This document shows positions 1,093 to 55,575 of a stretch of 64,000 nt of DNA, piece after piece. The stretch comes from Pelotomaculum sp. UBA1371 (GTDB lineage: Bacteria > Bacillota > Desulfotomaculia > Desulfotomaculales > Pelotomaculaceae). Location: assembly GCA_002305915.1 (NCBI GenBank), contig DBRJ01000063.1, positions 54,605-118,604 on the forward strand. The letters are read 5' to 3'. Numbering within the stretch: position 1 is the first letter of the stretch; each line of letters opens with the position of its first letter. A program made the position numbers and the translations under genes. A model generated the notes under the pieces. It saw only the letters and a program-made list of their open reading frames with translations. It had not been told where the DNA came from and searched no databases.

Positions 1093-1542
1093 ATGAAAAA
1101 GCTCATATCCGATATTGGGGATAAGCTGAAGGAAAATGAGTATAAGCTTACTACACGCCGGGAACTGATCTTGAAAGTGTTGCTGGAAAATAGTGACAAA
1201 CATTTGAGTGCTGAAGAAGTCTACAACCTGGTCAAGAAAAAAGCGCCGGACACGGGACTGGCTACGGTGTACAGGACCCTGGAGCTATTTCATGATTTTA
1301 ACATTATTCACGCCATGGATTTTGGAGACGGCAGGAAGCGTTATGAGTTCGGCTGGAAAGAAGGCCAGAAGTGTCATCACCACCACCACCTGATCTGCAC
1401 AGAGTGCGGCAGCATCATCGAGATGAATGAAGACTTGCTGGAGGAGCTGGAAAATCGCGTCAATAAACAGTATGACTTTACTGTTAAGGATCACCAGCTT
1501 AAGATTTTCGGCATTTGCAAGAAATGCAAAAACAGCTTATAA
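1093..1542 (+). CDS. Fur-family metal-dependent transcriptional regulator (Fur/Zur/PerR type not resolved)
   Basis: The winged-helix N-terminus 'LTTRRELILKVLLENSDKHLSAEEVYNLV...ATVYRTLELF' and the metal sites 'HHHHHLICTECG' and 'CKKC' are present. The start is moved to the ATG at 1093 (MKKLISD...) from the ORF-track start at 1015. Confidence 0.85.
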   Translation: MKKLISDIGDKLKENEYKLTTRRELILKVLLENSDKHLSAEEVYNLVKKKAPDTGLATVYRTLELFHDFNIIHAMDFGDGRKRYEFGWKEGQKCHHHHHLICTECGSIIEMNEDLLEELENRVNKQYDFTVKDHQLKIFGICKKCKNSL

Positions 1543-1544
1543 AG

Positions 1545-1566
1545 CACAACGGTATTGTGTTTTTTT
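1545..1566 (+). terminator. Rho-independent terminator after the Fur-family gene
   Basis: CACAA-cggta-TTGTG hairpin followed by a run of 7 T. Confidence 0.5.
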
Positions 1567-1626
1567 AACTGTCATTTCAACCATGCTACTGCTTAGTATG
1601 GATTTTTCTTTTAGGGGGTATGTTTT

Positions 1627-4463: not shown

Positions 4464-5378
4464 ATGGGAGATGTAGCTTTGAAGCGCGTTGTCAGTGTCA
4501 GCCTGGGCTCTCCCCGGCGAAACCAGGACCTTGAGCTGGAGGTGTCCGGCTCGCGTCTTATGGTCCAACGGGTTGGCGCCGGAGGAAACCTGGAATATAT
4601 GGCTCAAATTTTAAAGGACCTGGATGGAAAAGTGGACGCCCTTGGACTGGGCGGGATCAACCTCACCCTGCGGGCCGGACGGCGACGCTACCTGCTGCGG
4701 GACGGCGTCCGGCTGGCGGCGCAGGTCCGGGCGACACCACTGGTTGACGGCAGCGGCTTCAAGGATACGGTGGAGAGAGATCTTGTCTTATACTTGCAGG
4801 AAAAGTTGGGCTGGCCCCGGCGGGGTCAGGTTGTTTTAATGGTATCCGCCCTGGACCGCTATGGGCTGGCAGAGGCTTTGGAACTTGCAGGCTGCCGGCT
4901 GATTATTGGAGACGCCCTCTTTGCCCTGGGGCTGCCGGCGCCTTTTTATTCCCTGGCCTTGTTCCGGGCTGCGGCCTATGCCACCCTTCCCTTCCTGTGC
5001 CGGCTTCCCATCGGGTTTCTCTACCCGCTGGGTGAGAAACAGGAACAGGTGCGGCCCCGGTTTGAGCGTTTTTACAGGCGGGCGGAAATCATTGCCGGGG
5101 ATTTTCATTTTATCCGTTACCATTTACCCTCCGATCTCTCCGGCAAGGATATTATCACCAGCACCATTACTGCCGGGGACGTCCAGGAGTTGAAAAAGAG
5201 GGGGGTGCGCTGGCTGGTGACGCCGGGGCCTTCTTTTTCAGGCCGCTCTTTCGGCTCCAATGTGCTGGAGGCCATTTGCGTGGCCCTGCTGGATCAGCCT
5301 GGCGTGACAGACCCGGAGCTTTATCCGGCCCTCCTGTACCGGATCGGGTGGGAGCCCCGGATTGAAAAGCTCAATTGA
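4464..5378 (+). CDS. Conserved hypothetical protein (I recall this family being auto-annotated as quinate 5-dehydrogenase-like in Clostridia)
   Basis: A 304-aa ORF with coding-like composition, tightly packed between its neighbours. The assignment comes only from remembered similarity of 'VSLGS..R...LE.....' and 'VDALGLGGINL'. The start is uncertain because no clear RBS is visible. Confidence 0.45.
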   Translation: MGDVALKRVVSVSLGSPRRNQDLELEVSGSRLMVQRVGAGGNLEYMAQILKDLDGKVDALGLGGINLTLRAGRRRYLLRDGVRLAAQVRATPLVDGSGFKDTVERDLVLYLQEKLGWPRRGQVVLMVSALDRYGLAEALELAGCRLIIGDALFALGLPAPFYSLALFRAAAYATLPFLCRLPIGFLYPLGEKQEQVRPRFERFYRRAEIIAGDFHFIRYHLPSDLSGKDIITSTITAGDVQELKKRGVRWLVTPGPSFSGRSFGSNVLEAICVALLDQPGVTDPELYPALLYRIGWEPRIEKLN

Positions 5379-28498: not shown

Positions 28499-29548
28499 AT
28501 GCTTGACTTTGAACTCGACCTTGACCAGTTCGCCAATATAAAGGTTATTGGGGTCGGGGGAGGTGGCAATAACGCGGTAAACAGGATGATTCACGCGGGT
28601 CTCAAAGGAGTTGAGTTTATCGCGGTAAACACCGACGCCCAGGCGCTTTATTTGGCTCAGTCCAACCACAAAATTCAAATCGGCACCAAACTGACTAAAG
28701 GCCTGGGCTCCGGCGGCAACCCCGAAATCGGCCAAAAGGCCGCCGAAGAAAGCCGCGATGAGATCCTGCAGGCCTTGAAGGGTTCTGACATGGTATTTGT
28801 TACAGCCGGCATGGGCGGGGGAACAGGCACCGGAGCTGCTCCCATTGTGGCTGAGGTTGCCAAGGAACTGGGAGCCCTGACCGTGGGTGTTGTAACCAAG
28901 CCGTTTACATTCGAAGGGCGTAAGAGAGCTGCCCAGGCGGATGCCGGAATTGAGACTCTGAAGGAAAAGGTTGACACACTGATTACCATTCCCAACGACA
29001 GGTTATTACAGGTCATTGAAAAGCAAACATCTATTGTTGAGGCTTTCCGGATTGCAGATGATGTGTTGCGCCAGGGTGTTCAGGGCATTTCCGACTTAAT
29101 TGCCGTACCCGGCCTAATCAACCTTGATTTTGCCGATGTAAAGACCATTATGAAGGAAACTGGTTCCGCTTTGATGGGTATCGGCACCGCAGGCGGGGAT
29201 AACAGGGCTACGGAGGCCGCCCGGGCATCCATTTCCAGCCCGCTGCTGGAAACCTCCATTGAGGGGGCCAGGGGAGTTTTATTGAATATTACAGGTGGTG
29301 CTTCCCTGGGTCTGTTTGAGGTAAACGAGGCGGCGGAGATTATTGCCCAGGCCGCCGATCCTGAGGCCAACATTATTTTTGGAGCGGTTATCGACGAGCG
29401 GATGGAAGATGATGTCCGGGTAACCGTTATTGCCACGGGATTTGATCAGAGGGCACCGAAAAAGGGACGAACCGTTGATGAACTGGAAATTAAACCATTG
29501 TCTACCCATGATGATCTGGATATTCCGGCTTTTTTGCGCAGACGATAA
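28499..29548 (+). CDS. ftsZ: Cell division GTPase FtsZ
   Basis: '[13 protein letters not shown]' and the tubulin signature '[10 protein letters not shown]' are present. The C-terminal peptide is '[12 protein letters not shown]'. Confidence 0.98.
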
Positions 29549-29555
29549 AAATACA

Positions 29556-29581
29556 CCCCCCTGCCGGACATGGGGTTTTTT
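29556..29581 (+). terminator. Rho-independent terminator after ftsZ
   Basis: CCCCCTG-ccgga-CATGGGG hairpin (one mismatch) followed by TTTTT. Confidence 0.6.
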
Positions 29582-29804
29582 GTGAAAGGAGTATAAATAA
29601 AACCCGCTCCACCAAAGCTATGAGATATTATAGCGGAAGGGGGACGGTATGTGGCCGGGCGGAAAAAGAACCCTGTTAAGATTGAAATCAGGAAAAATCG
29701 CAAGGAAGAATTGAACCGGATCCGGGGAACTCAAAAAGTAATTGACCCGGAGCGGGGTCCCTAAAATAAATAAAATAAATACTTTACGGAAAAGGGGAGG
29801 AACA

Positions 29805-30854
29805 ATGACTAAGAATAAAAACCCGCGGCTGACCACGCTTGCAGGTAGCGCCGGGTGAGCAGCGAAGCTGAGTCCTCAGGACCTGGCGCAGGTACTGTGC
29901 CGGTTGGCTCCGGTGGAGGACCCGAATTTGCTGGTAGGTTCCTCCACCTGCGACGACGCGGCGGTTTTCCGCCTGAATGATGACACTGCCATTGTCCAGA
30001 CTGTCGATTATTTTACACCGGTGGTGGACGATCCCTATACCTTTGGGTCCATAACTGCGGCAAATGCTTTGAGCGATATTTACGCGATGGGGGCAAAACC
30101 GCTCCTGGCCCTAAATATTATCGGTTTTCCCTGCAAGGAACTGTCCCTGGAAGTGCTGGTGGAAATTCTGCGGGGCGGCGCTGACAAGGTTAAAGAAGCC
30201 GGAGCCCTGGTGGTGGGCGGCCACACCATTGAGGATAAAGAGCCTAAATACGGGCTTGCCGTCACCGGCCTGGTACATCCGGACAGGGTGGTTAAAAATG
30301 CCGGGGCGCTTCCGGGGGATGCCCTGATTCTAACCAAGCCTTTGGGGAGCGGCATTATAGTTACTGCCGTTAAAGGTGATCTGGCTGACGACCGGACGTA
30401 CAACAGTGCTGTAAAGCTGATGGAGGCGCTGAACGATCGGGCTTCCCGGGTCATGATTGAAGCCGGGGCGCATGCCTGCACGGACATCACAGGATTCGGA
30501 TTGCTGGGCCATCTTTACGAAATGGCGGCAGCCGGCAGCGTGGGAGCCCGCATCTATTTGTCACAAATACCCGTCCTGGAACAGGTCCGTGAGCTTGCCT
30601 CCATTGGGTTGATCCCGGCTGGAGCTTACCGGAACCTGAACTATCTTGAGGAAAAGCTGCAGTGGAGCAGTTCCATTGATGAAACGGACAAACTGATCCT
30701 GGCCGACCCCCAGACTTCGGGGGGGCTCCTGATGGCCGTCCCGGGGGATAAAGCGGCAGCTGTCCTGGAAGCACTGGAAGTTGAAGGTGTAACGGGAGCA
30801 CAGATTGGTGAAATAATAGATAATGAAAAGCCATTGATAAAAATTGAAGACTGA
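29805..30854 (+). CDS. selD: Selenide, water dikinase SelD (selenophosphate synthetase), selenocysteine-containing (UGA at 29856-29858)
   Basis: An ATG at 29805 sits behind GGGGAGG and is in frame with the 29904 ORF. Reading through the TGA gives MTKNKNPRLTTLAGSAG-U-AAKLSPQDLAQVL.... This aligns with the E. coli SelD N-terminus [20 protein letters not shown], placing the TGA at the catalytic Cys17 position. Downstream, 'DDAAVF', 'TVDYFTPVVDDPY' and 'AANALSDIYAMGAKP' are classic SelD blocks. Confidence 0.9.
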
Positions 30855-30873
30855 AACGTTTAAAATAAACCTG

Positions 30874-31216
30874 TCAACCCCTCCTGATGATAGAATTCAA
30901 AACTTCGTCGAAAGGCATTTCCCCAATTTCATCAAGCAACTGGTCCAGTTTGGTCCTTCGTCTTAGCGAGCCTTCCAGGAGAATTTCAATGACCTGATCT
31001 TTGTCTACCGCTATCGAACTGACTTCCAGGACGCCTGCCAGGAGCCCCAGGATGACCAGGATTTTTTGGGGTGTAAGTAATGGTAATTTTTTTTTTGACG
31101 CTGGTGCAGCCGGCGTCTTTTGTTTTTGGAATGTTTTGTGCGGGATACCCTTTTCCCTGAGTGAACTGGGCTAAGGCCTGTTCGAATAAAGAAAGCAGGT
31201 CATTAGAAGGAGACAA
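30874..31216 (-). pseudogene. Hypothetical gene split by a frameshift at an A10 homopolymer (T10 on + strand, 31087-31096)
   Basis: On the minus strand, a TTG start at 31216 follows GGGGGG and gives MSPSNDLLSLFEQALAQF...TSVKKK. After the A10 run, the -1 frame continues as protein-like sequence LPLLTPQKILVILGLLAGVLEVSSIAVDKDQVIEILLEGSLRRRTKLDQLLDEIGEMPFDEVLNSIIRRG* (stop at 30874-30876). That second frame has no start codon of its own. Confidence 0.45.
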
Positions 31217-31730
31217 GGGATTCCCCCCTTTTTAGGACGAAAAAGCATTCAAAGACCGGTTTTAGGGAAAAATGACCGGCACCCCGGCTCTGCTTGGTGA
31301 CCCTGCAAGTCCTGTAGCAAAAAGAATGGCAAGACTTGTTGCGATAATCAGTAATAGATCATGTTGAACATTTTCCAGGTCGGGCAATGCAATCACACCT
31401 TTTTTCATAGATATTATATTTATATTAATCCGGCTGCCCGTTGGTGTTTATAAAGCAGGTGTTCCGGCAGAAAGGATCCAGGCGACTAAAAAGCAGCCGG
31501 CAGCAATATTTTTGAACTGTAACTGTGTTTTTTGCAGTAAAATGTCAGGGAAAAAATAACAGTTGTGTTCAAAACACGACAAATTCTCAAGCCCGGACAA
31601 TGTATAATAAGGCCAGTGTTGTTATTATTTAACCTATCTGTCATAAAGCAAGAAAGCTTACGATAAAATGGTAATAGAGTTATTATAATATTTTCTGGAA
31701 AGTTTGCTCCAGGAGCAGGAGAATAAATCT

Positions 31731-32648
31731 ATGACGGCATTTACCGTCTATCTCGACCAGGTTTTCCTGGGCAACATGGTCATGAATTACATCATCCTAT
31801 GGGCTGCTGCAAAGATAAGCCGCGTTCCGGTTGGAAAAACCAGGCTTGCCGCAGGAGCAGCGCTGGGAGCCGGCTATGCAGTGGTTGCTTTATTACCCGG
31901 CTGCAGCCTTCTCTTAACAATAGGTTTTAAAACTGCCGCTTCCATCATAATCACAGCCGCAACATTCTTTCCTGTTCCACTTCGGAAGTTTATCACCTGT
32001 CTTGGTTGTTTTTATTTAACATCTTTTGTGCTGGGCGGGCTGGTGTTCGGAGTCATCTTCTTTTTTCATGCCGGCGTCATAACCAGTCTAAGTGGTGTAG
32101 GCGTGATCATCAACCAGCACCTGTGGACGGGTATTCTTCTGGGGCTGGCGGCCTTTTGGGCAGCTGTAAAAGGTTTTAACGCACTTCAAAAGAAGGGATT
32201 GCTGGAAAACATTTTTAAAATTCCTGTTTTAATTCGCACAGACAGTAAACAGGTGAAAGTGGATGCGCTTCTCGATACCGGTAATCAGTTAGAAGACCCC
32301 ATGACCGGACACCCAGTGATCGTTGTTGAATACAGCCTTCTAAAACCTCTTTTGCCTATGCGGTTACACCCTTTTTTTGAAGCAGACGGGGATGCCGACA
32401 TCTGGGAGATTTTAAGCTCCCTGAGCGGGTGCGGCGCTGCTTCACGCTTTAGTGCCATTCCCTTTCAGTCCCTGGGTAAGACAAAGGGGCTGCTTCTTGG
32501 TTACCGTCCCGATGAAATACTGTTGGAACAGCATGGCCGAAAGCCCTGCGCCGTAAAGGCAGTTTTGGCCATTTACCGGAAAAGTCTGTTTCCCGGCGGG
32601 TCCTGTCAGGCGCTGTTAGGTCCCAACTTGCTTGATCCGGCCTCGTAG
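31731..32648 (+). CDS. spoIIGA: Sigma-E processing peptidase SpoIIGA
   Basis: It has a polytopic N-terminus 'VYLDQVFLGNMVMNYIILWA' and the aspartic-protease motif 'ALLDTGNQLEDPMTGHPVIVVEY'. It lies immediately upstream of sigE. The start is moved to ATG 31731, behind AGGAGA. Confidence 0.9.
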   Translation: MTAFTVYLDQVFLGNMVMNYIILWAAAKISRVPVGKTRLAAGAALGAGYAVVALLPGCSLLLTIGFKTAASIIITAATFFPVPLRKFITCLGCFYLTSFVLGGLVFGVIFFFHAGVITSLSGVGVIINQHLWTGILLGLAAFWAAVKGFNALQKKGLLENIFKIPVLIRTDSKQVKVDALLDTGNQLEDPMTGHPVIVVEYSLLKPLLPMRLHPFFEADGDADIWEILSSLSGCGAASRFSAIPFQSLGKTKGLLLGYRPDEILLEQHGRKPCAVKAVLAIYRKSLFPGGSCQALLGPNLLDPAS

Positions 32649-32840
32649 CCTGACCCCACCTGCTCCGGTCCAGGCAACAGGCCAGTCTCCGGTTAAGATT
32701 ACTTAATTGTGCCGTCGCAGCCAGGCCCCTGCAGGACGGACAGATCTGACAAGATCAAGAGAATGATCCTGTTTTGTTTAATCTGTACCTCTGATTTAGT
32801 TCAGGCAGTTATAGTGCCCCAGCGGAGGGAGGACAAGTGT

Positions 32841-33572
32841 GTGTTTTCTAAGATATTCCGGCGTGCCCGGTGGAGGGGTCGCCTGGCATTGTTGCGCCTG
32901 CTGATTTGGTTGGGTTACCGTCCGCGTATTTATTATGTCGGCAGCAGCGAAGCTTTACCCCCGCCTTTGAGTACCGATGAGGAAACCTTTTTAATCGACC
33001 GCCTGGAATCCGGGGACGGGGCGGTTAGGAGCATCTTAATTGAAAGAAACCTGCGTTTGGTGGTTTATATCGCCCGGAAATTTGAGAATACAGGGGTGGG
33101 AATTGAGGATCTGGTATCCATAGGTACCATCGGGCTGATTAAAGCGGTCAATACCTTTGATCCGGCCAAGAAAATCAAACTGGCTACCTATGCTTCCCGC
33201 TGTATTGAGAATGAGATCCTCATGTACCTGCGGCGAAATAACAAGACCCGGGCGGAAGTCTCCTTTGATGAACCGCTGAATATCGACTGGGACGGAAATG
33301 AGCTGCTGCTGTCGGATGTCCTGGGTACGGAAAACGATGTCATCTACAAATATATAGAGGACGAGGTGGATAAAAAACTGCTTCACCTGGCGCTGCAAAA
33401 GCTCTCCGGCCGGGAACGCAAAATTATGGAACTGCGTTTCGGCCTGAACAACGGAATGGAAAAAACTCAAAAGGAGGTTGCCGACCTTCTGGGAATATCT
33501 CAATCTTATATTTCAAGGCTGGAGAAAAGAATAATTAAAAGGTTGAAAAAGGAGATTCACCGCATGGAGTAA
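32841..33572 (+). CDS. sigE: Sporulation sigma factor E (pro-sigma-E)
   Basis: It is near-identical over long blocks to B. subtilis SigE as I recall it. Examples are '[14 protein letters not shown]', '[21 protein letters not shown]', '[40 protein letters not shown]' and '[18 protein letters not shown]'. A GTG start at 32841 behind GGAGGGAGG gives 243 aa. The ORF-track start at 32709 is too long. Confidence 0.95.
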
Positions 33573-33616
33573 AGAAGATTCATTAAATATGTAATCCAAG
33601 ATACACGCCTGCCTGT

Positions 33617-33647
33617 CGTCTCGTTGTACTGGAGAGGACGCTTTTTT
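33617..33647 (+). terminator. Candidate terminator after sigE
   Basis: CGTCTC pairs with GAGAGGACG (1-nt bulge), followed by CTTTTTTG. Confidence 0.45.
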
Positions 33648-33665
33648 GTGCCCTTTTTAAGACGT

Positions 33666-33694
33666 GTATAAATCAATTTGGGCTTGGCAATAAT
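33666..33694 (+). promoter_or_regulatory. Forespore-type (sigma-F/sigma-G) promoter of sigG
   Basis: GTATA (33666-33670), a 15-nt spacer, then GGCAATAATG (33686-33695). This fits the published sigma-F consensus GYATA-N15-GGnnAnAHTR at every specified position. It lies ~55 nt upstream of the sigG ATG. Confidence 0.6.
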
Positions 33695-33748
33695 GAAATT
33701 GAAAAAGAAAAACAAATACGACGCCGGATAAAAGATGGGGGGCCTTCT

Positions 33749-34522
33749 ATGCTGGTGAACAAGGTGGAGATCTGTGGTGTCAATACATCTAAACTCCCTG
33801 TACTGACAGGCAGCCAGATGCGGACCCTGTTTGAGGCCATGCATAAGGGAGATACCTCCGCCCGAACCCAGTTGGTTAACGGCAATCTCAGGCTTGTCCT
33901 AAGTGTAATCCAGCGTTTTACAAACAGGGGCGAATATGTAGACGATCTCTTCCAGGTGGGCTGCATCGGCCTGATGAAAGCCATTGACAACTTTGATCTT
34001 TCCCAGAATGTTAAGTTCTCCACGTATGCAGTACCCATGATTATCGGAGAAATACGCCGTTATCTCAGGGACAACAACCCCATCCGGGTCAGTCGCTCCC
34101 TTCGTGACGTAGCTTATAAAGCCCTGCAGGTGAGAGACGCCCTTGTCAACAAATATTCCCGGGAACCCTCCATTAATGAAATTGCCGGAGAATTAAAAAT
34201 GCCCAGGGAAGATATAGTTTTCGCCCTGGACGCCATCCAGGAGCCTATTTCCCTGTTCGAACCCATTTACCATGACGGTGGTGATCCCATCTTTGTCATG
34301 GACCAGATCAGCGACGAGAAGAATCAGGACCTGAACTGGCTGGAGGGCATCGCCATCCGGGACGCTCTTCGAAAACTGAACGACCGGGAGAAGTTGATTT
34401 TAACACTCCGTTTTTACGAGGGGAAAACTCAAATGGAAGTGGCGGAAGAAATCGGCATCTCCCAGGCGCAGGTTTCCAGGCTGGAAAAAGCAGCTCTCAA
34501 CCACATGCGAAAATATGTGTAA
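33749..34522 (+). CDS. sigG: Sporulation sigma factor G
   Basis: It shares long blocks with B. subtilis SigG. Examples are 'NKVEICGVNTSKLPVL', 'LVNGNLRLVLSVIQRF.NRGEYVDDLFQVGCIGLMK.IDNFDLS.NVKFSTYAVPMIIGEIRRYLRDNNPIRVSRSLRD.AYKALQVR' and 'GKTQMEVAEEIGISQAQVSRLEKAA'. Confidence 0.95.
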   Translation: MLVNKVEICGVNTSKLPVLTGSQMRTLFEAMHKGDTSARTQLVNGNLRLVLSVIQRFTNRGEYVDDLFQVGCIGLMKAIDNFDLSQNVKFSTYAVPMIIGEIRRYLRDNNPIRVSRSLRDVAYKALQVRDALVNKYSREPSINEIAGELKMPREDIVFALDAIQEPISLFEPIYHDGGDPIFVMDQISDEKNQDLNWLEGIAIRDALRKLNDREKLILTLRFYEGKTQMEVAEEIGISQAQVSRLEKAALNHMRKYV

Positions 34523-38724: not shown

Positions 38725-38809
38725 AAACAACAAAAAGGAGGAGATTAGGCAGATTCAGTTTTTAGTTAAACAATAAACAAGGAGGAAATTATGCGGATTC
38801 AGTTTTTAG
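38725..38809 (+). repeat. Tandem ~41-nt duplication of the ribosome-binding/initiation region of the beta-CASP gene
   Basis: Copy 1 (38725-38765) is aaacaacaaaaaggaggagattaGgcAgattcagtttttag. Copy 2 (38768-38809) is aaacaataaacaaggaggaaattaTgcGgattcagtttttag. Only copy 2 keeps the ATG, at 38791. Confidence 0.7.
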
Positions 38810-40359
38810 GGGCTGCCGGCACAGTGACAGGTTCATGTTTTCTCCTGGATACCTCTCAATCAAGGATCTTGATTGATTGCGGAATGTTTCAGGGCTCCAA
38901 AGAAGTCCGGGAACGGAATTACAGCAGCTTTTACGTACCGCCTCGCAGCATTCAATATGTTTTGCTTACCCATGCCCACATTGACCACAGCGGTCTGATA
39001 CCGAAACTTGTTAAACACGGTTTTAAAGGAAAAATTTATGCCACTCCTGCAACCATAGAACTATGCGAGGTACTCCTTCCCGACAGCGGCTACATTCAGG
39101 AAATGGAGGTTGAACGTAAAAACCGCAAGAACCGCCGGGCTGGACGGCCGATGATTGAACCGGTTTACAACGTTGATGAGGCCTACAAGAGCCTTCCTTT
39201 TTTTCAACCTGCCGGGTATAATCAGATAATCCGGATTTCCCCCGATGTCCGGGTACGTTTTGTGGATGCGGGACATATACTTGGTTCGGCCATGATCGAG
39301 GTCTGGGTACAGGAGGGTTCTTCGGAAATAAAACTCGTCTTTTCCGGGGATATTGGAAATCATAATCGTCCTATTGTTAATGACCCTTCAACAATTGCGG
39401 AAGCAGACTACGTCATTATGGAATCTACTTACGGCAACCGTCTGCACCAGCAGCATTGCGATAAAGAAATCGAATTATTGCACGAGATAATCTGGGATAC
39501 TTATAAAAAAGGAGGCAACCTGATTATTCCCGCCTTTGCGGTGGAGCGGACCCAGGACCTGCTTTACCACCTGATTTTATTAATGGAAGAACAAAGGATG
39601 CCCCCCATGCAGGTTTATATCGACAGTCCCCTGGCCACGGCTGCAACCAACGTTTTTCAAAGGCACCGCGATTGCTATGACCAGGAAGCCAGAGAGCTTG
39701 TTCAAAGGGGGGGGTGTCCCGTCATCCATCCGTCCCTGAAGTTTACGCTTTCGGCGGAGGAGTCAAAATCCTTGAACCAGATCAGCGGGGCCATTATTAT
39801 CTCCGCCAGCGGCATGTGCGAGGCCGGACGGATCAGGCATCATCTTAAATACAATCTCTGGCGGCCGGAAAGCACAGTGCTGTTTATCGGCTACCAGGCT
39901 GAAGGCACCCTGGGGCGGCTAATCCTGGACGGGCAAAAGAGCGTGCGCATATTTGGTGACGAAATAACTGTCAAGGCTGATATTCGAAATATTGAATGCT
40001 ACTCTTCCCATGCCGACCAGGCGGGGCTTTTGAGTTGGATAAAAAAATTTTCCAGCCCTCCCCGGGAGGTTTTCCTGGTTCACGGTGAGCCTGACGCCTC
40101 AGAATCCCTGGCAGACCTGATCCGGGTGGAAACTGGCCAAAAAGTTACAATTCCGGCCTGGCAGCAGATTGTGGAACTGGACCCGCTCGCTACTGAACCC
40201 GATGCTGCCGTCAAACAGGCCTACCGTTCGCTGAGCGGTAAAATCGGCAATCTCCTTTCCGCCGGGGTCAATCCTTTGCACCGGGAGGAAATACTCAACC
40301 GCCTGGCTGAACTGGAAGCTTTCATTGAGGAAAGGACGGTTAAAACCTCCGGAGTTTGA
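38791..40359 (+). CDS. Metallo-beta-lactamase / beta-CASP family ribonuclease-like protein
   Basis: 'FLGAAGTVTGSCFLL', the MBL motif 'LLTHAHIDHSG', 'ESTYG', the beta-CASP region and 'SSHADQ..L' are present. The protein is 522 aa. Confidence 0.85.
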   Translation: MRIQFLGAAGTVTGSCFLLDTSQSRILIDCGMFQGSKEVRERNYSSFYVPPRSIQYVLLTHAHIDHSGLIPKLVKHGFKGKIYATPATIELCEVLLPDSGYIQEMEVERKNRKNRRAGRPMIEPVYNVDEAYKSLPFFQPAGYNQIIRISPDVRVRFVDAGHILGSAMIEVWVQEGSSEIKLVFSGDIGNHNRPIVNDPSTIAEADYVIMESTYGNRLHQQHCDKEIELLHEIIWDTYKKGGNLIIPAFAVERTQDLLYHLILLMEEQRMPPMQVYIDSPLATAATNVFQRHRDCYDQEARELVQRGGCPVIHPSLKFTLSAEESKSLNQISGAIIISASGMCEAGRIRHHLKYNLWRPESTVLFIGYQAEGTLGRLILDGQKSVRIFGDEITVKADIRNIECYSSHADQAGLLSWIKKFSSPPREVFLVHGEPDASESLADLIRVETGQKVTIPAWQQIVELDPLATEPDAAVKQAYRSLSGKIGNLLSAGVNPLHREEILNRLAELEAFIEERTVKTSGV

Positions 40360-49494: not shown

Positions 49495-49787
49495 TGCCTG
49501 TTAGAGCATATTCCCACCTGCCTGTGAACGGGGGGAGTAGACGGGGTGGTCCGTTTAAGAGAGCCTGGACAAGGTGCGAGCCGGGTACGGAGAACCGTCG
49601 AAAATCACCCGGGAGGCGCCGTCTGAAACCTTGCTGTGGGATTAAGAAGGGCCGGCTTGCCACCGTTATCGGGCGCGAAGCGGCTGGTTTTTGACAGAGA
49701 GCGTATCTCAAGCCTTTGCCTTAAAGACCAGCAGTTAGGGTGGTACCGCGGGTCTTCAATCCCGTCCCTTGGGGGACGGGATTTTTG
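49495..49787 (+). promoter_or_regulatory. T-box leader (tRNA-Ile responsive) with terminator/antiterminator
   Basis: Stem I elements are AGAGAG plus the distal GGUGCGA. The specifier-loop context is GAAA-AUC-A, with the Ile codon AUC at 49603-49605. The F-box-like CCGUUA is present. The T-box AGGGUGGUACCGCG lies at 49737-49750. The terminator is AATCCCGTCCC-ttgg-GGGACGGGATT followed by TTT (49758-49787). Confidence 0.85.
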
Positions 49788-49894
49788 CATTAGAAATTAT
49801 TAACCCGCCCGAACACCGGCAAGGTGATTTGTTCGTAATTAGCCGGCCGGATTCATTATTCATTAAATCATTAATAAGCGAGGTGTCTAAAGCA

Positions 49895-52678
49895 TTGGAC
49901 TACAGCAAGACATTAAACCTGCCTAAAACCGACTTTCCCATGCGGGGGAATCTGCCTCAGCGGGAGCCGGAGATTTTAAAATTCTGGGAAGAAATTAATA
50001 TTTATGAAATGGTCCAGCAAAAAAACCGGGGACGCCGGAAGTTCATCCTGCATGACGGGCCCCCTTACGCCAACGGGCATATTCACCTGGGTCACGTTTT
50101 AAACAAGGTATTAAAGGATATTGTCATAAAGTACCACTCCATGTCCGGTTATGACGCGCCTTATGTACCGGGCTGGGATACCCACGGCCTGCCCATTGAG
50201 CAGCAGGCCATCAAAGCCTTCGGTCTGAACCGTCATCAAATCCCCCCGGTGGAATTCCGGCAAAAGTGCAAGGAATTTGCCCTGAAATACGTAGAGATCC
50301 AGCGGGAAGAATTCAAGCGCCTGGGCGTGCGGGGTGAGTGGGACAATCCTTACCTGACCCTGAAGCCCTATTTCGAGGCCCGCCAGATTGGCGCCTTCGG
50401 TGAAATGGCCAAAAAGGGCTATATTTATAAGGGTCTGAAGCCGGTCTACTGGTGTGCCTCCTGCGAAACCGCCCTGGCCGAGGCCGAAGTGGAGTACGAC
50501 GATAAACGCTCGGCTTCGATTTATGTGCGTTTCCCGGTTTGCAACGGCAGGGGGGTCCTGCCTGAAAAGGATACCTATGTGGTCATCTGGACCACCACAC
50601 CCTGGACGCTGCCCGCCAACCTGGCTATTTGCCTGCACCCCGACTACCGCTATGTCCTGGTCCGGACAGACCGGGAACAATATCTGGTTGCCGAAGAATT
50701 AAAAGATAGTTTTCTGGAGCTTATCGGCGCCTCCAACGCCGAAGTGACAGCAGATTTTAAAGGGTCGGAGCTGGAGCGGGTGGAATGCGGCCACCCCTTT
50801 GTAGACAGAGTTTCCCTGGTAATCCTGGGCGGGCACGTTACCCTGGAGCAGGGCACCGGTTGTGTGCACACCGCACCGGGCCACGGCATGGAGGACTTCA
50901 TTGTAGGCAGGGAGTACGGTCTGCCGGTGCTCTCGCCGGTGGACGCCAGGGGGCGTTTTACCGGGGAAGGGGGCATCTTTGCCGGCCAGTTTTACCTGGA
51001 CGCCAACAAAGCAGTCCTGGAAGAACTGCAGCGCCGGGGGCATCTGCTGCATCAAGCCACAGTCCAGCACCAGTATCCGCACTGCTGGCGCTGCAAAAAA
51101 CCGGTCTTTTTCCGCGCCACGGAGCAGTGGTTTGCCTCCATTGACGGATTCCGCCAGGCGACCCTGGAGGCAATCCGCAAGGTGCGCTGGATCCCGGCCT
51201 GGGGCGAGGAGCGCATCTACAGCATGGTTGCCAACCGGGGCGACTGGTGCATTTCCCGCCAGCGCAGCTGGGGAGTGCCCATCCCTATTTTTTACTGCAA
51301 AGAGTGCGGCAAAGAGCTCATTAATGATCAAACCATCAGCCACCTCCAGGAACTGTTCCGGGAACACGGCTCCGATGTCTGGTTTGCCAGGGAGGCAGGC
51401 GAACTGCTGCCGCCCGGAATAAAATGCCCGCACTGCAGCAGCGGGGAATTCAGCAAGGAAAAAGACATCATGGACGTCTGGTTTGATTCCGGCACCAGCC
51501 ACCTGGGCGTTCTGGACCAGAATCCCGACTGGCCGGATTTGCGCTGGCCTGCCGATCTGTACCTGGAGGGGAGCGATCAGCACCGCGGCTGGTTTAATTC
51601 ATCCCTGTCCACTTCTGTGGCCGTAACCGGAGAGGCGCCCTACCGGGCGGTCTTAACCCACGGTTTTGTTGTGGATGAGCAGGGCCGGAAGATGTCGAAG
51701 TCCCTGGGCAATGTGGTGGACCCCGCTAAAGTTATCCAACAAATGGGCGCGGATATTTTAAGGCTGTGGGTCAGTTCGGCCGACTACCGGGGCGACCTGG
51801 CAGCCTCCCCGGGCATCCTCAAGCAGATGACGGAGGCCTACCGGAAAATCAGGAACACCTGCCGTTTCCTGCTGGGCAACCTCTATGATTTTGACCCTGC
51901 TAAAGACGCAATCAGTTATCACGAAATGCTGGAAATCGACCGCTGGGCCCTGTTGAAGCTGCAAAAATTGATCCGGAAAGTTACCTGCGGCTACCGTGAT
52001 TACGAGTTTCATGTTGTTTATCACGCTATCCACGGTTTTTGCACCGTTGATCTGAGCGCCCTTTACCTGGATATAATTAAAGACCGCCTTTACACCGCTC
52101 CGACCCGTTCTCCGGAGCGGCGGTCCGCCCAAACTGTCCTTTACCATGCTCTAAGTGCCCTGGCGCGGCTGTTGGCCCCGGTGCTGGCCTTTACCTCGGA
52201 AGAAATCTGGCGCTACATTCCCGGCGACAGGGAAGGGGCCATCAGCGTGCAGCTTACCTCCATGCCCGAAGTTGTGGAAGAGTACCTTGATGAAGAACTG
52301 GACCAGAAGTGGGAGCGCCTCCTGGAAGTACGGGGTGAAGTGACCAGGGCCCTGGAAGCCGCCCGGCGGGATAAGGTTATCGGTAACTCCCTGGAAGCCG
52401 CCGTTGAACTGTACGCCGGAGAAGACCTGTACAACTTTTTAAAGCCCATGGCTAAAGAACTGGCCGCTATCTTTATCGTATCCGGCGCCACTCTGAAACC
52501 TCTGGAAGAGATCCCTGGAGGCGTAAGGGAATCAGAGCAACTTCCGGGGCTGGCGGTGACCGTGCGGACCGCCGGCGGCCGTAAATGTGAACGCTGCTGG
52601 ATGTACCACGAAGGCGTGGGTGCTGATTCCGGACACCCCGCCCTCTGTCCCCGCTGCGTAGGGGTTATAACACAATAA
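49895..52678 (+). CDS. ileS: Isoleucine--tRNA ligase (type 1)
   Basis: The TTG start at 49895 follows GAGGTG and gives [21 protein letters not shown].... The HIGH motif is '[12 protein letters not shown]' and KMSKS is 'KMSKS'. The C-terminal zinc ribbon is 'CERCW...CPRC'. The ORF-track start at 49769 lies inside the T-box terminator. Confidence 0.95.
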
Positions 52679-52884: not shown

Positions 52885-53283
52885 TTGAATCAGAATAAAG
52901 CCGGGGAATTCAGGGAAGAAGGCGACAGGAAGGTGTTTGAAAGTAAAAAAAAGGGGGGCGGCCTCAGCCCCGCTCACAGGTTTCTTGCCTTTATGCTCTG
53001 GCTTGGAGTGGTCTGCGGCGGATTTTTTCTGGCCAAGTATTACTTTGATCAGGCTATTCAGACTGTTCAGCAGACCAACGCTATGAATGTGCAGACCCTG
53101 GAAGCCCGTTTGGAGAGCTTGGCCGCAGATGTTGGTGAAATAAAAAAAGATCTGAATTCAGCGGGGCGCACCCTGTCCAGCTCTGACTCCATCCAGAAGG
53201 AGTTAAACAAGAAAATTGAAGAGTTGGACAGTCAGCTCAAAGAATTGGAAAAGAGTTTAAATATTTTAAGGGAGGCCCCCTGA
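52885..53283 (+). CDS. Hypothetical membrane-anchored coiled-coil protein
   Basis: It has one TM segment ('FLAFMLWLGVVCGGFFLAKYY') followed by heptad-like 'LEARLESLAADVGEIKKDL...LDSQLKELEKSLNIL'. Its stop overlaps the next ATG (TGATG). It starts at TTG. Confidence 0.5.
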   Translation: MNQNKAGEFREEGDRKVFESKKKGGGLSPAHRFLAFMLWLGVVCGGFFLAKYYFDQAIQTVQQTNAMNVQTLEARLESLAADVGEIKKDLNSAGRTLSSSDSIQKELNKKIEELDSQLKELEKSLNILREAP

Positions 53284-54314
53284 TGCGGCATGTCAATTTA
53301 TTTCTGGTTTTTTCTCTGGCTCCTTTTATCGGCTTGTTGCTTTTTTTCACCGGCCTTCCCAAAAGCCTGCAGGCCCTGGAAATGCCGTTGAAAAGCCTGC
53401 ATGAGGGCACGGGTGTAATAGAAGGCCAGTTGTTGGAGATCAGGCGGGATACGGGCATATTGAGTGAAACTGTGCTGGAACAGGAGCGCCTTTACCAGGA
53501 ACAGAGTAATATCCTGGAATCCCTTGCCGGCAAAAGCCAGGAGCACAGGCAGCTCTCGGACGGGATCTATGAGGAGCGCATCCTGGCCATGCTGGGGCCT
53601 CCCGTGGGTACCCACAGGTCCGGGCGGGTGGAAATCAAGGTCTTTAAACTGGACGAGCTTGGCTACCGGGGGTATATTGCCAAAATTAAACTTTTTGATC
53701 CCGGGGCCTTGAAAGTTGTCCTGGCCGGGGACAAACCCGGCAATCTGGAAACAACTGCAAATGCAGTAAAGCGCACCGGGGCCATCCTGGGTATTAACGG
53801 GGGCGGTTTTTACAATGCCGGCGGCAAGTCGCTTCCCATCGGCAATACGGTAATCGACGGCAAACTGGTTGGAGGTTTTACCCCCGCAGATGATGTTTTT
53901 TTTGCCGGTACAGGAAAAAGCGGCTCCTTTATCGGCGGGGTTTTCACCAAAAAAGAAGACCTGCTCAAACTCGATCCCTGGCAGGGTGTAAGTTTTCTGC
54001 CGGTCCTGATCAGGCAGGGGCAACCCGCATCCATTCCGGAAGAATGGAAAACCACCCGCCAGCCGCGAACCATTATCGGTGAGTACGCCAACGGGGATCT
54101 GATCCTGATTGTTGTGGACGGGCGTCAAGCAGACTGGAGCAGCGGTGTAACCCTGGAAAGGCTGCAGGTTAAACTGGCGGAGCTGGGTGTCAAAGAAGGC
54201 TACAATCTTGACGGCGGCGGCTCCAGTACCTTTATTTTCAAGGGTGAAGTCTTAAACCGCCCTTCCGACGGAAAACAGCGGCCGGTAGTTACAAATATTG
54301 TAATTATGCCCTGA
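53283..54314 (+). CDS. Phosphodiester glycosidase (NAGPA/DUF2233) family protein
   Basis: It has a signal/TM N-terminus. 'GAILGINGGGF', 'PRTIIGEYANGDLILIVVDGRQ' and 'YNLDGGGSSTFIFKGEVLNRPSDG..RPV.N.' are typical of this family. Confidence 0.75.
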   Translation: MRHVNLFLVFSLAPFIGLLLFFTGLPKSLQALEMPLKSLHEGTGVIEGQLLEIRRDTGILSETVLEQERLYQEQSNILESLAGKSQEHRQLSDGIYEERILAMLGPPVGTHRSGRVEIKVFKLDELGYRGYIAKIKLFDPGALKVVLAGDKPGNLETTANAVKRTGAILGINGGGFYNAGGKSLPIGNTVIDGKLVGGFTPADDVFFAGTGKSGSFIGGVFTKKEDLLKLDPWQGVSFLPVLIRQGQPASIPEEWKTTRQPRTIIGEYANGDLILIVVDGRQADWSSGVTLERLQVKLAELGVKEGYNLDGGGSSTFIFKGEVLNRPSDGKQRPVVTNIVIMP

Positions 54315-54388
54315 CCTTAAAGCGGTCAAAAACATTGTGTGCTGCTCCACCGGCCCGGTTAATGCTAAAAAGATTGTTCCCAAGACAA

Positions 54389-54420
54389 GAAACCTTCCTC
54401 ATAGAATTGAGGAAGGTTTC
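54389..54420. terminator. Perfect 12-bp hairpin flanking the stem-loop array (best read as a terminator on the minus strand)
   Basis: GAAACCTTCCTC-atagaatt-GAGGAAGGTTTC. On the minus strand it is followed by UUGUCUUGG. On the plus strand it is followed by UAUGUUAAG. Confidence 0.5.
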
Positions 54421-54431
54421 TATGTTAAGAG

Positions 54432-54838
54432 CCCGTAATGACCTACGCTCCAGCCATTACGCATACCTTCGCAGCCCATGACAATCTTTCGACTGCCATG
54501 AACCATTACGGCACCCGTAATGACCTTTGCTCGACTATCATGGATATCTAGGGAGCCTATAACAATCTTTCGACTGCTATAGACCCCAGGCTTAAAAGTA
54601 GAGTCATAGCATCCGAAACCCATGATAGTCTTAGCTCGACCAATGGACATCCCTTGTGACCCTGCAGCAATCGTTCGGACTGCTGCAAAGCCTGCCGGAA
54701 CACCCATCAGTCTGCCCTCCGGCCAATACCGAACCATTTTGACCCGGTATTGACCTTTGGCCGACTATTACAGAGCCTTGTTGACCCTGTAACAGTCTTG
54801 GCTCGGCCATTACGAACCCTTGTGATAGTATTGTGCCC
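54432..54838 (-). repeat. Array of at least 9 tandem degenerate stem-loop units (~41-nt period), candidate structured ncRNA
   Basis: Each unit on the + strand starts with CCC followed by an imperfect palindrome around a conserved core, (a)atcTTTCGACtgc or acctTTGCTCGAC. Hairpins lie at 54434-61, 54477-500, 54518-40, 54556-82, 54620-46, 54663-87, 54706-27, 54747-71 and 54789-813. On the minus strand they read, for example, CAUGGCAGUC-GAAA-GAUUGUCAUG and CUAUAGCAGUC-GAAA-GAUUGUUAUAG. No RBS is visible for the two overlapping minus-strand ORFs in the track. Confidence 0.6.
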
Positions 54839-55119
54839 AAAAGAGCAGGCTTTATTAACAAATTTACATGGTAATTTTATACAATTTTTTTGCTTTTTTC
54901 TCCAATGATTCTAGTAAAATAATAGTCCTTTCCAAAAAAATCCTGGTCTTTTTGATTGGAGGATTTGGCAGGAACCTTTTCGGACAGACTTAAAGCAGGT
55001 TAATATTTTTAAAGATTAGCCTCCTGTTCGTAACAGAGTGTAGAATTATTCGCCTTACTTTCATTTAATTATGCTGCAAGGGGAATCAATTATGGTAAAA
55101 TTAGTAACGGTGATGGGAA

Positions 55120-55575
55120 ATGTTCTTTTTAATTATTGCAATTGTCTTATTGCTTGATCAGGGCTCCAAGGCGGCTGTGCAGATGTGGATGTATCAGGGC
55201 GAATCCATACCCATTATCAAGCAGGTTTTTCACCTCACCTACATCCTTAATCCGGGGGCGGCCTTCGGCTTCCTGGCCCACCAGACGAACCTCTTCATTA
55301 TCGTTACGGTGGGCCTGGTCCTGGGGGTGCTGCTGTTTTACCGGAGCCTGCCCCTGGAGAGGGTTTTCATGCGCTACGGCCTGGCCCTGGTTGTGGGGGG
55401 GGCTCTGGGCAACCTGGTGGACCGCCTGCGTTTCGGCAAGGTCGTTGATTTTCTGGATTTTCGGGTGTGGCCGGTCTTTAACCTGGCTGATTCGGCCATT
55501 GTGATCGGCGTCTGCCTGTTGACTCTGGATTTTTTAAAGGATTCGGTTCAAAAACAGGATAAGGAAAGTGAGTAA
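55120..55575 (+). CDS. lspA: Lipoprotein signal peptidase (signal peptidase II)
   Basis: 'LLLDQGSK', 'NPGAAFG', 'GGALGNLVDR' and 'VVDFLDF..WPVFNLADSAI' are present. Confidence 0.92.
   Translation: MFFLIIAIVLLLDQGSKAAVQMWMYQGESIPIIKQVFHLTYILNPGAAFGFLAHQTNLFIIVTVGLVLGVLLFYRSLPLERVFMRYGLALVVGGALGNLVDRLRFGKVVDFLDFRVWPVFNLADSAIVIGVCLLTLDFLKDSVQKQDKESE

Follow-up and report, generated by a model that had tools for sequence, protein, structure and literature searches.

The 64,000-nucleotide (nt) stretch of contig DBRJ01000063.1 from Pelotomaculum sp. UBA1371 analysed here, referred to as the window, probably carries a gene of its own for a large, structured non-coding RNA, whose family was found neither in Rfam 15 nor in the open-access literature searched. 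The structured block is located in an 805-bp gap between a phosphodiester-glycosidase gene (NAGPA domain, PF09992), which ends at 54314 on the plus strand, and lspA, which starts at 55120 on the plus strand. The RNA is encoded on the minus strand, so that the glycosidase gene is convergent to it and lspA is divergent and lies on its upstream side. The RNA adopts a single nested fold spanning 54821-54427, in which a 17-bp closing helix (P1) opens into a six-way junction with five arms.

The minus-strand RNA of 54380-54870 folds with a minimum free energy (MFE) of -241.4 kcal/mol, compared with -147.6 +/- 5.0 kcal/mol for shuffled sequences (z = -19.0). The MFE of the plus strand over the same interval is -153.1 kcal/mol (z = -7.6). 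The difference between the two strands is due to 37 G-U pairs among the 175 pairs predicted on the minus strand, which turn into A-C mismatches on the other strand. The original prediction, made from the letters of the sequence, had placed a strand-specific structured block at this site on the minus strand and ascribed its strand specificity to G-U pairs. Both claims agree with the folding energies.

The fold is built from nine helices of nearly equal length, about 16 bp each. Two of the arms are simple hairpins of 15-16 bp. The other three are two-helix arms, each composed of an outer helix of about 16 bp that carries an inner hairpin of 15-16 bp via a small internal loop. The six linker strands of the central junction are variants of one motif, YC-GRGC-NAAG-R. 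The 18 helix strands, about 16 nt each, alternate between two types, X (GRYY...GGGUC) and Y (GGYUC...AGUC); the segments between them are in turn an A-rich loop and either GAAA or GAGCNAA. Each helix has conserved ends with G-U wobbles that are invariant in the family, and a centre of 5-7 bp that covaries freely and specifies the partner strand.

A period of about 41 nt, as had been proposed, is obvious in this structure but weak in the primary sequence. The best self-match shifts are 42, 81, and 124 nt, with an identity of 0.35-0.36 versus 0.361 for the best shuffle. A direct-repeat search returns pairs spaced 81-84 nt apart. Tandem Repeats Finder (TRF) reports nothing, since the similarity between units is below 70%. 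The RNA evidently grew from a unit of about 41 nt by nine-fold duplication. Its internal nine-fold repetition, together with the scattered paralogues described below, indicates that duplication shaped the RNA.

The architecture departs from the array of nine tandem GNRA-capped stem-loops that was originally envisaged, and only three of the seven hairpins listed at that time exist. The GAAA or CGAAC hairpins at 54477-54500, 54556-54582, and 54663-54687 have folding energies of -12.5 to -14.5 kcal/mol and constitute the tips of arms E, D, and C, respectively. The two compensatory swaps described between the first two of them, C-G to U-A and G-C to A-U, are present in the sequence. The four hairpins with 7-nt loops (54518-40, 54620-46, 54789-813, and 54747-71) are not formed. 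Their energies range from 0 to -6.7 kcal/mol in the window, and their family medians are -2 to -4.5 kcal/mol, as opposed to -11 to -12 kcal/mol for the real tips. The supposed loops GAGCAAA, GAGCUAA, GAGCCAA, and GGCCAAA are single-stranded strands of the central junction. The closing hairpin does exist and is perfect, but its stem contains 14 bp rather than 12 bp.

Covariation was analysed in an alignment of 75 sequences, with homologues gathered by nhmmer, aligned by MAFFT, and a consensus derived by RNAalifold. The RNAalifold consensus of 70 homologues reproduces the MFE fold of the window. Standard pairs occupy 96.8% of the 11,310 pair cells in the alignment, compared with 84.7% after column shuffling and 33-42% when the partners are slid by 1-3 columns. 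Changes on both sides occur in 101 of the 151 pairs. There are 1470 compensatory cells, versus 447 in the shuffles and 120-238 in the slid controls, and none of 500 shuffles attains any of the covariation measures. Every helix of at least 15 bp, including the long-range helix P1, contains 8-13 covarying pairs. Insertions of 20-150 nt in the alignment are confined to the helix tips and the internal loop of arm D. The core of the original prediction, a structured and covarying minus-strand RNA that ends in a terminator hairpin, is borne out by the fold and these pair changes.

Several of the G-U pairs are kept unchanged in every or almost every sequence, at equivalent sites near both helix ends. 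The invariant pairs fix the strand of the RNA. Their placement near the helix ends also suggests specific recognition.

The block had been noted as a possible decayed gene for a protein with 13- to 14-residue repeats ('SRKIVMG' type), in which case the hairpins would be incidental. Minus-strand open reading frames (ORFs) of 105 and 76 aa do span the array, the period of about 41-42 nt is near a multiple of three, and one frame is open in 6 of the 70 homologues (for example, 130 aa in locus L012). In the remaining 64 homologues, stops interrupt each of the three frames of the RNA strand (median, 5-8 per frame). Variation shows no excess at third codon positions (0.50/0.63/0.61 bits), and the homologues are conserved at the nucleotide rather than the amino-acid level. 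Coding would explain neither the compensatory substitutions across helices, whose partners are up to hundreds of nucleotides apart, nor the long insertions at the helix tips. The ORFs are accidental, since the sequence is poor in stops. The RNA is non-coding, and an origin as a protein gene has next to no probability.

The core of the RNA is more conserved than its surroundings. Its identity to the orthologous loci L005 and L008 is 95.9% and 92.4%, respectively, whereas nucleotide identity in the flanking glycosidase and lspA genes is only 80-86%. The core is thus under stronger constraint than its protein-coding neighbours and is subject to purifying selection. Altogether, the element displays the general features of a structured non-coding RNA: a covarying structure, strand specificity, absence of a coding signal, and transcription signals recognizable by sequence.

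The RNA belongs to a family of considerable breadth. A pattern, AGTCGAGCNAAGRY-N20-50-AGTCGAAAGATT, was scanned over 185,579 species-representative genomes and identified 87 loci, with a gap of exactly 28 nt in 89 of 90 matches. A search with the window sequence by nhmmer revealed collinear full-length homologues of 430-630 nt at about 80 genome loci. The same pattern found 82 further contigs in metagenomes, 60 of which contain near-full-length copies. All the metagenome matches are on contigs of at least 1 kb, and none is of transcript size.

The hosts in Desulfotomaculia and Clostridia include Pelotomaculum (with the cultured P. propionicicum and P. terephthalicicum), Desulfoscipio geothermicus, Sporotomaculum syntrophicum, Ca. 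Syntrophopropionicum, Acetivibrio mesophilus, and Ruminiclostridium. The hosts in Negativicutes are Pelosinus, Propionispora, Dendrosporobacter, and Lucifera butyrica. No Bacilli are present among the hits of the genome pattern scan. To our knowledge, all the named host genera are endospore formers. One copy, in locus L017 (JAUZOY010000377.1, 1.7 kb), is on a very short contig binned as 'Bacteroidota bacterium', which is probably a binning error and not a true occurrence outside Bacillota.

Close relatives of the window locus were located through the neighbouring glycosidase gene. Two lineages, with glycosidase protein identities of 85% and 83%, contain the same element with the same fold at the same locus. 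In L008, a vanZ-like gene (4534-4893, minus strand) is inserted between lspA and the RNA. It is on the RNA strand and ends about 65 nt before P1. At more distant loci L009 and L010 (68% glycosidase identity), the RNA and lspA are absent and the locus is rearranged. A convergent PyrR-like gene (Pribosyltran/UPRTase) and a 95-aa ORF follow the glycosidase gene at these two loci (L009:4187-5052, minus strand, and L010).

Elsewhere, the neighbours within 2.5 kb of about 70 loci differ by clade and include MgsA, UvrC, ThiC, an EVE-domain protein, MnmA, an M19 dipeptidase, an SDR protein, and YraN. There are no conserved neighbour genes, and the commonest neighbour cluster occurs at only 8 of the roughly 70 loci. 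Neither a transposase nor a toxin is found among the recurrent neighbours in this range.

Each genome contains 1-5 copies, at most 4-5 loci being detected per genome by the strict pattern, which makes these counts lower bounds. Lucifera butyrica and the metagenome-assembled genome (MAG) SKW257 have at least four copies each. Sporotomaculum syntrophicum FB contains tandem full-length copies (L036:675-1115 and 1183-1623, plus strand), each with its own promoter boxes and terminator, and L029 contains two copies spaced 2 kb apart. An internally deleted copy (L071:3047-3217, minus strand) is present in a Pelotomaculum MAG, 3.3 kb from a full copy on the same contig. Its 5' part, consisting of P1 and the first hairpin, is fused to the 3' end, consisting of the P1 3' strand and the terminator. 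Paralogues of one genome have diverged, and the differences between them are compensatory.

The copies at unrelated loci, the tandem duplicates, and the internally deleted copy would also be expected of a selfish repeat. Such an element would resemble a repetitive extragenic palindrome (REP), a bacterial interspersed mosaic element (BIME), a BOX element, or a miniature inverted-repeat transposable element (MITE), with P1 as the terminal inverted repeat, and would be spread by a transposase and passively kept. BIMEs and the pneumococcal BOX also consist of internal palindromic units. They share with the present RNA clustered imperfect palindromes in alternation, strand specificity when transcribed, and a large stable fold that can be formed. 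However, REP and BIME elements, which are linked to RAYT/IS200-type transposases and a conserved GTAG-type recognition tetranucleotide, occur in tens to hundreds of copies per genome. The 64-kb window contains one copy, with no dispersed further copies found by searches including nhmmer, and each genome a handful. As DNA, P1 is an imperfect inverted repeat, containing four G-U pairs, and it covaries over a long range. The orthologues remain at the same locus and are better conserved than the genes beside them, same-genome paralogues have diverged with compensatory changes, and a predicted promoter at a fixed distance and a terminator belong to the element itself. The family was also absent from IMG/VR viral contigs (pattern search) and from phage and plasmid records (blastn). 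In agreement with the original prediction, the element is not REP-like, given its few diverged copies and the lack of a transposase among the recurrent neighbours within 2.5 kb of about 70 loci, and a selfish repeat is highly improbable.

A DNA-level element is less probable still. In this case, the block would be an array of dyad protein-binding sites, similar to an iteron or a centromere (sopC/parS-like), or a hairpin site in single-stranded DNA, and would not act as RNA. Its tandem units of about 41-43 bp with inverted repeats do resemble sopC of the F plasmid, and G-T wobbles are tolerated in hairpins of single-stranded DNA as well. Arrays of binding sites conserve sequence, whereas here the helix centres vary and their complementarity is kept. 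The partners in P1 are up to about 390 nt apart, and a strand asymmetry based on G-U pairs is meaningless for duplex DNA. In addition, the promoter and the terminator bracket the structure exactly, and the locus is chromosomal with no partition or replication genes nearby.

The RNA could instead be a cis-acting part of another transcript, either a stabilizing 3' untranslated region or insulator of the upstream gene or a leader of the downstream gene. A same-strand gene ends 50-110 nt upstream at several loci (MgsA in 8 loci, ThiC, UvrC, and vanZ in L008). The upstream gene, however, varies by clade and is the divergent lspA in the window, and the downstream gene is often convergent. A conserved promoter is situated between the upstream gene and P1, and a terminator follows directly after the structure. 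A cis-acting element is very unlikely on these grounds, and a free-standing RNA gene is the preferred interpretation.

Two boxes are found upstream of P1 throughout the family. A -35 box, G[ACT]AT[ATG], is followed by a spacer of 17-18 nt and a -10 box, CA[TC]N[ACT]TA, the variants of which are mostly CATAATA, CATACTA, and CACAATA. The distance from the end of the -10 box to the first paired base of P1 is 6-9 nt. A strict match to both boxes at this fixed distance is present in 42 of 70 genome homologues, compared with 0.57 expected from shuffles, and was replicated in 28 of 57 independent metagenome homologues. The remaining homologues have one-mismatch variants of the two-box pattern. In L008, sequence conservation begins exactly at the -35 box (TTAATAAA), so that the vanZ insertion delimits the conserved promoter block. 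The weak extended -10 element originally proposed at 54852-54860 is actually the -35 box of this promoter, and the -10 box is CACAATA at 54835-54829.

The boxes resemble promoters of the forespore sigma factors. They fit the sigma-G consensus, GHATR-18-CATXHTA, and overlap with the sigma-F consensus, GCATR-15-GGHRARHTX. The window copy, TAATA-17-CACAATA, has one mismatch per box relative to the G-H-A-T-R and C-A-T-N-H-T-A boxes of sigma-G/sigma-F promoters, whose spacer is about 17-18 nt, and is correctly placed before the predicted transcript start, as expected for a member of this promoter class. The promoter of the window's own sigG gene, GTATA (33666-33670)-17-CAATAAT (33688-33694), has the same layout. 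The family boxes also match those of the mapped sigma-G promoter of C. difficile sspA, TGAATTAATAATGTTTAAAATCACAATAAT (TGAATT...CACAATA), as listed in Table S6 of Saujet et al. (2013, PMC3789822). It is quite likely, judging from these boxes, that the promoter is read by sigma-G and/or sigma-F, which would mean that the RNA is made in the developing endospore.

The source organism is itself an endospore former, because the window encodes FtsZ, SpoIIGA, SigE, and SigG in a cluster at 28499-34522 (plus strand). The NCBIfam matches of FtsZ, SigE, and SigG exceed their cut-offs (504 bits versus 457 for SigG), and that of SpoIIGA, 187 bits, is under its cut-off of 209.55.

Another candidate, the sigma-70-like site TTGGAA-16-TAGAAT (54935-54908, minus strand), was rejected as the promoter. 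It is not conserved, and vanZ occupies its position in L008. It could be a second, vegetative promoter or a chance match in the AT-rich spacer.

The 3' boundary would be set by a strong intrinsic-terminator hairpin that begins 5 nt after P1, with a tail, UUUCUUGUCUU, partly within the stem. The hairpin is conserved with compensatory changes across the Desulfotomaculia clade, which comprises Pelotomaculum and its Desulfotomaculia relatives. Some of these relatives have clean U tails, such as GGTTTCTTATTTTTT in L008. A consensus terminator scan did not call the 14-bp hairpin of the window, because its U tail is interrupted. A lax census counted terminators in 59 of 70 homologues. It over-calls AT-rich hairpins, is too permissive outside the GC-rich clade, and was not relied on. 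The hairpin may also end the convergent glycosidase gene. The features of the RNA and its putative transcription signals are summarized in Table 1.

Table 1. Structural elements of the RNA and its predicted transcription signals, in window coordinates
Feature	Position	Strand	Description or evidence
-35 box TAATA	54853..54857	-	17 nt upstream of the -10 box; conservation in L008 starts exactly here
-10 box CACAATA	54829..54835	-	family motif; resembles forespore sigma-G/sigma-F promoters
Predicted transcript, about 440 nt	54385..54823	-	start near 54823-54821 from promoter position, end from terminator
P1 5' strand (17-bp closing helix), AAGGGUUCGUAAUGGCC	54805..54821	-	helix 1; 95.8% of cells paired, 9/17 pairs change on both sides
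Junction strand GAGCCAA, 5' of arm A	54798-54804	-	
Arm A, 15-bp hairpin with loop AACAA	54763..54797	-	helix 3; 13/15 pairs compensatory
Arm B, 16-bp hairpin (54755-54721) plus 3-bp mini-helix	54714..54762	-	helices 4, 5; 12/16 pairs compensatory
Arm B, strands of the 3-bp mini-helix: junction GGCCAAA and GGAGGGCA		-	
Arm C	54638..54712	-	helices 6-9
Arm C, composition			outer 16-bp helix (54712-54697/54653-54638), 4x4 internal loop, inner 15-bp hairpin with loop CGAAC (54692-54658)
Arm D	54529..54635	-	helices 10-12
Arm D, base			GCU/AGC mini-helix between junction strands GAGCUAA and GAGCAAA
Arm D, composition			13-bp helix (54630-54618/54545-54533), variable insert, 16-bp hairpin with GAAA loop (54587-54552)
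Arm E	54452..54525	-	helices 13, 14
Arm E, composition			outer 16-bp helix (54525-54510/54467-54452), 5x5 internal loop, inner hairpin with GAAA loop (54505-54472)
Junction strand GGAGCGUA, 3' of arm E	54444-54451	-	
P1 3' strand, GGUCAUUACGGGCUCUU	54427..54443	-	fold and covariation
Intrinsic-terminator hairpin, perfect 14-bp stem, 6-nt loop	54388..54421	-	54388-54401 paired with 54408-54421

In the proposed scheme, RNA polymerase would initiate transcription on the minus strand a few bases ahead of 54821 and stop at the hairpin of 54421-54388. The resulting transcript of about 440 nt would fold with its two ends paired in P1, and the five arms would radiate from the six-way junction. The RNA may perhaps work by virtue of its shape and dosage, serving as a multivalent platform or sponge: each of its nine near-identical helix modules would bind one copy of a helix-recognizing spore protein. 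The main alternative mechanism would be an RNA-only particle, compact or self-assembling, like ROOL or GOLLD. Both ideas would fit the repeated helix module, the tolerance of insertions at the tips, and the amplification of the gene in some genomes, including tandem copies that have promoters of their own. The protein sponge or scaffold suggested in the original prediction would be compatible with this anatomy. An antisense regulator is a poor fit, because the only single-copy sequences that vary are hidden inside helices and lack conservation.

Taken as a whole, the RNAs could plausibly form an uncatalogued class of modular RNAs of 0.43-0.63 kb, confined to endospore-forming Desulfotomaculia and Clostridia and sporulating Negativicutes and made in the forespore under sigma-G/sigma-F. 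We propose this only as a possibility. The nine 'addressed' helices would build an origami-like particle that either self-assembles or binds a spore protein in many copies, and would thereby aid spore maturation, dormancy, or germination. The link of the RNA class to sporulation as such is probable.

Several points weigh against the main interpretation. The apparent invariance of junction J5 and of the GAAA loop of arm E is imposed by the search pattern, which fixes AGTCGAGCNAAGRY and AGTCGAAAGATT, and is therefore uninformative. The taxonomic range, including the restriction to spore formers, is a biased sample obtained with one strict pattern. Outside the Desulfotomaculia clade no convincing terminator is evident, and the 3' end is not reliably definable there. 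As for the promoter, the spacer of the C. difficile sspA promoter is about 2 nt shorter than that of the RNA family, and in the subclade to which the window belongs the -35 box (TTAATA) has no G. A weak sigma-A promoter (TTAATA-17-CACAAT) or a -10 box for sigma-E would also agree loosely with the two boxes. Finally, the scaffold or sponge mechanism is purely inferential.

The same RNA gene might be transcribed from a sigma-A or mother-cell promoter, its distribution among spore formers being a sampling artefact. The boxes of the window can be read as those of a weak sigma-A promoter, CATACTAT resembles the sigma-E -10 consensus CATACAHT, and the sigma-70-like site described above is located nearby. 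The -10 box, however, starts with C in almost every homologue, and the -35 box reads G-N-A-T, which fits sigma-G/sigma-F and not sigma-A. The spacer of 17-18 nt corresponds to sigma-G, whereas sigma-E would give 16 nt in the same register. The sigma-70-like site is not maintained among relatives, and the boxes match both the sigG promoter in the window and C. difficile sspA. Transcription by sigma-A or in the mother cell is thus rather unlikely, and forespore transcription by sigma-G and/or sigma-F is favoured.

The RNA was compared with known families. The T-box at 49515-49772 is the only hit when the whole window is scanned with Rfam 15 at gathering thresholds. In the region 54200-55200, a scan at E <= 10 gives only chance-level hits (PyrR site, 26.5 bits versus a threshold of 54; gyrA, 19.6 versus 45). 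The sub-threshold PyrR-site hit overlaps the terminator and was dismissed as chance. The original prediction had recognized no RNA family in the block, which agrees with the lack of an Rfam match. No description of the RNA family was found in open-access full text, searches with literal sequence strings included. It is likewise unmentioned in the GC-IGR (intergenic region) discovery papers. The RNA apparently represents a new, uncatalogued family.

Some large ornate RNAs of the group that includes the raiA motif, ROOL, GOLLD, and OLE form RNA-only assemblies. The RNAs of this group are likewise free-standing, several hundred nucleotides long, rich in helices, strongly covarying, and present in Bacillota. 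All four are in Rfam and none scored here, so that there is no sequence or structure match. Unlike them, the present RNA is composed of nine iterated modules of equal length, with a repeated junction motif and a forespore-type promoter. Disruption of raiA affects sporulation in Clostridium, as reported in PMC10861870.

CsfG and Bvs196/S547 are described as stand-alone products of sigma-F/sigma-G transcription in the forespore that have been conserved among endospore formers (PMC9147052, PMC3574147, and PMC8583004). CsfG corresponds to the reverse strand of the ylbH motif, is 136 nt long with CU-rich loops, and binds Hfq (PMC3574147). Bvs196/S547 is 294 nt long and is reported from Bacillus only (PMC9147052). 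The present RNA is three times the size of CsfG, rich in helices, and repetitive, and it occurs in Desulfotomaculia, Clostridia, and Negativicutes, whereas Bvs196 is restricted to Bacillus. The ylbH model, an Rfam family, gave no hit on either strand in the Rfam scans, and the RNA does not group with CsfG.

The sponge RNAs CsrB and RsmZ share a repetitive multi-hairpin build and, in some genomes, the presence of several paralogues. They act by stoichiometric, dosage-dependent sequestration and display GGA in short hairpin loops 7-22 times. The helices of the present RNA are longer (about 16 bp), and its loops are GNRA-like or A-rich. The family consensus contains no recurrent loop GGA; its loops and junctions are GAAA/GNRA, A-rich, or GRGCNAA. 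The RNA is therefore not a CsrB/RsmZ sponge.

ToxI-like type III antitoxin RNAs also consist of tandem repeats (about 36 nt in ToxI) in one RNA that ends in a terminator. The ToxI repeats are near-identical and direct, are cut into monomers, and are followed by a toxin gene. In contrast, the present units have diverged beyond detection by TRF and form a single fold by pairing among themselves. There is no toxN/abiE-type toxin gene downstream, where the terminator is followed by the convergent NAGPA-domain gene.

The block had not been recognized as a CRISPR in the original prediction, and TRF indeed detects no array. A CRISPR has near-identical direct repeats of 24-48 nt with unique spacers of similar length between them. 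Here the direct repeats are 76-90% alike and are seen solely as pairs, and units base-pair with other units. REP/BIME, MITE, CRISPR, and type III antitoxin are thus excluded as the present identity of the element by copy number and by the recurrent neighbours within 2.5 kb, which include no transposase or toxin.

New classes of large, widely conserved bacterial non-coding RNA are rare, and earlier ones led to ribozymes, RNA-protein machines, and RNA-only cages. The evidence in this case is unusually clean, with 101 covarying pairs, more than 70 sequences, and three Bacillota classes. The design is distinctive and attractive for structural work: a single helix module recurs nine times, its ends conserved, its G-U pairs invariant, and its 'address' centre variable. 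If the sigma-G/sigma-F promoter is confirmed, the RNA would be the largest and most widespread forespore-specific RNA known to us. It would then offer a handle on post-transcriptional or RNA-scaffolded processes in the developing or dormant spore, an area with few known RNAs, all of them lacking a clear mechanism. Several hosts can be cultured, including Desulfoscipio geothermicus, Pelosinus, Lucifera butyrica, Acetivibrio mesophilus, Sporotomaculum syntrophicum, and Pelotomaculum.

Three further features of the window were noted. The T-box leader (plus strand) scores 106 bits, above its Rfam gathering score, and immediately precedes ileS (49769-52678). Between ileS and the glycosidase gene is a 132-aa ORF (52885-53283, plus strand) that looks like a coiled coil and has no Pfam hit; divIVA-like genes usually occupy this position. 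A 522-aa ORF at 38791-40359 (plus strand) resembles beta-CASP/metallo-beta-lactamase RNases. The Cas14 (type VII CRISPR) and aCPSF1 models score far below their cut-offs on it (448 versus 800 bits), and the protein is probably an RNase J-like enzyme.

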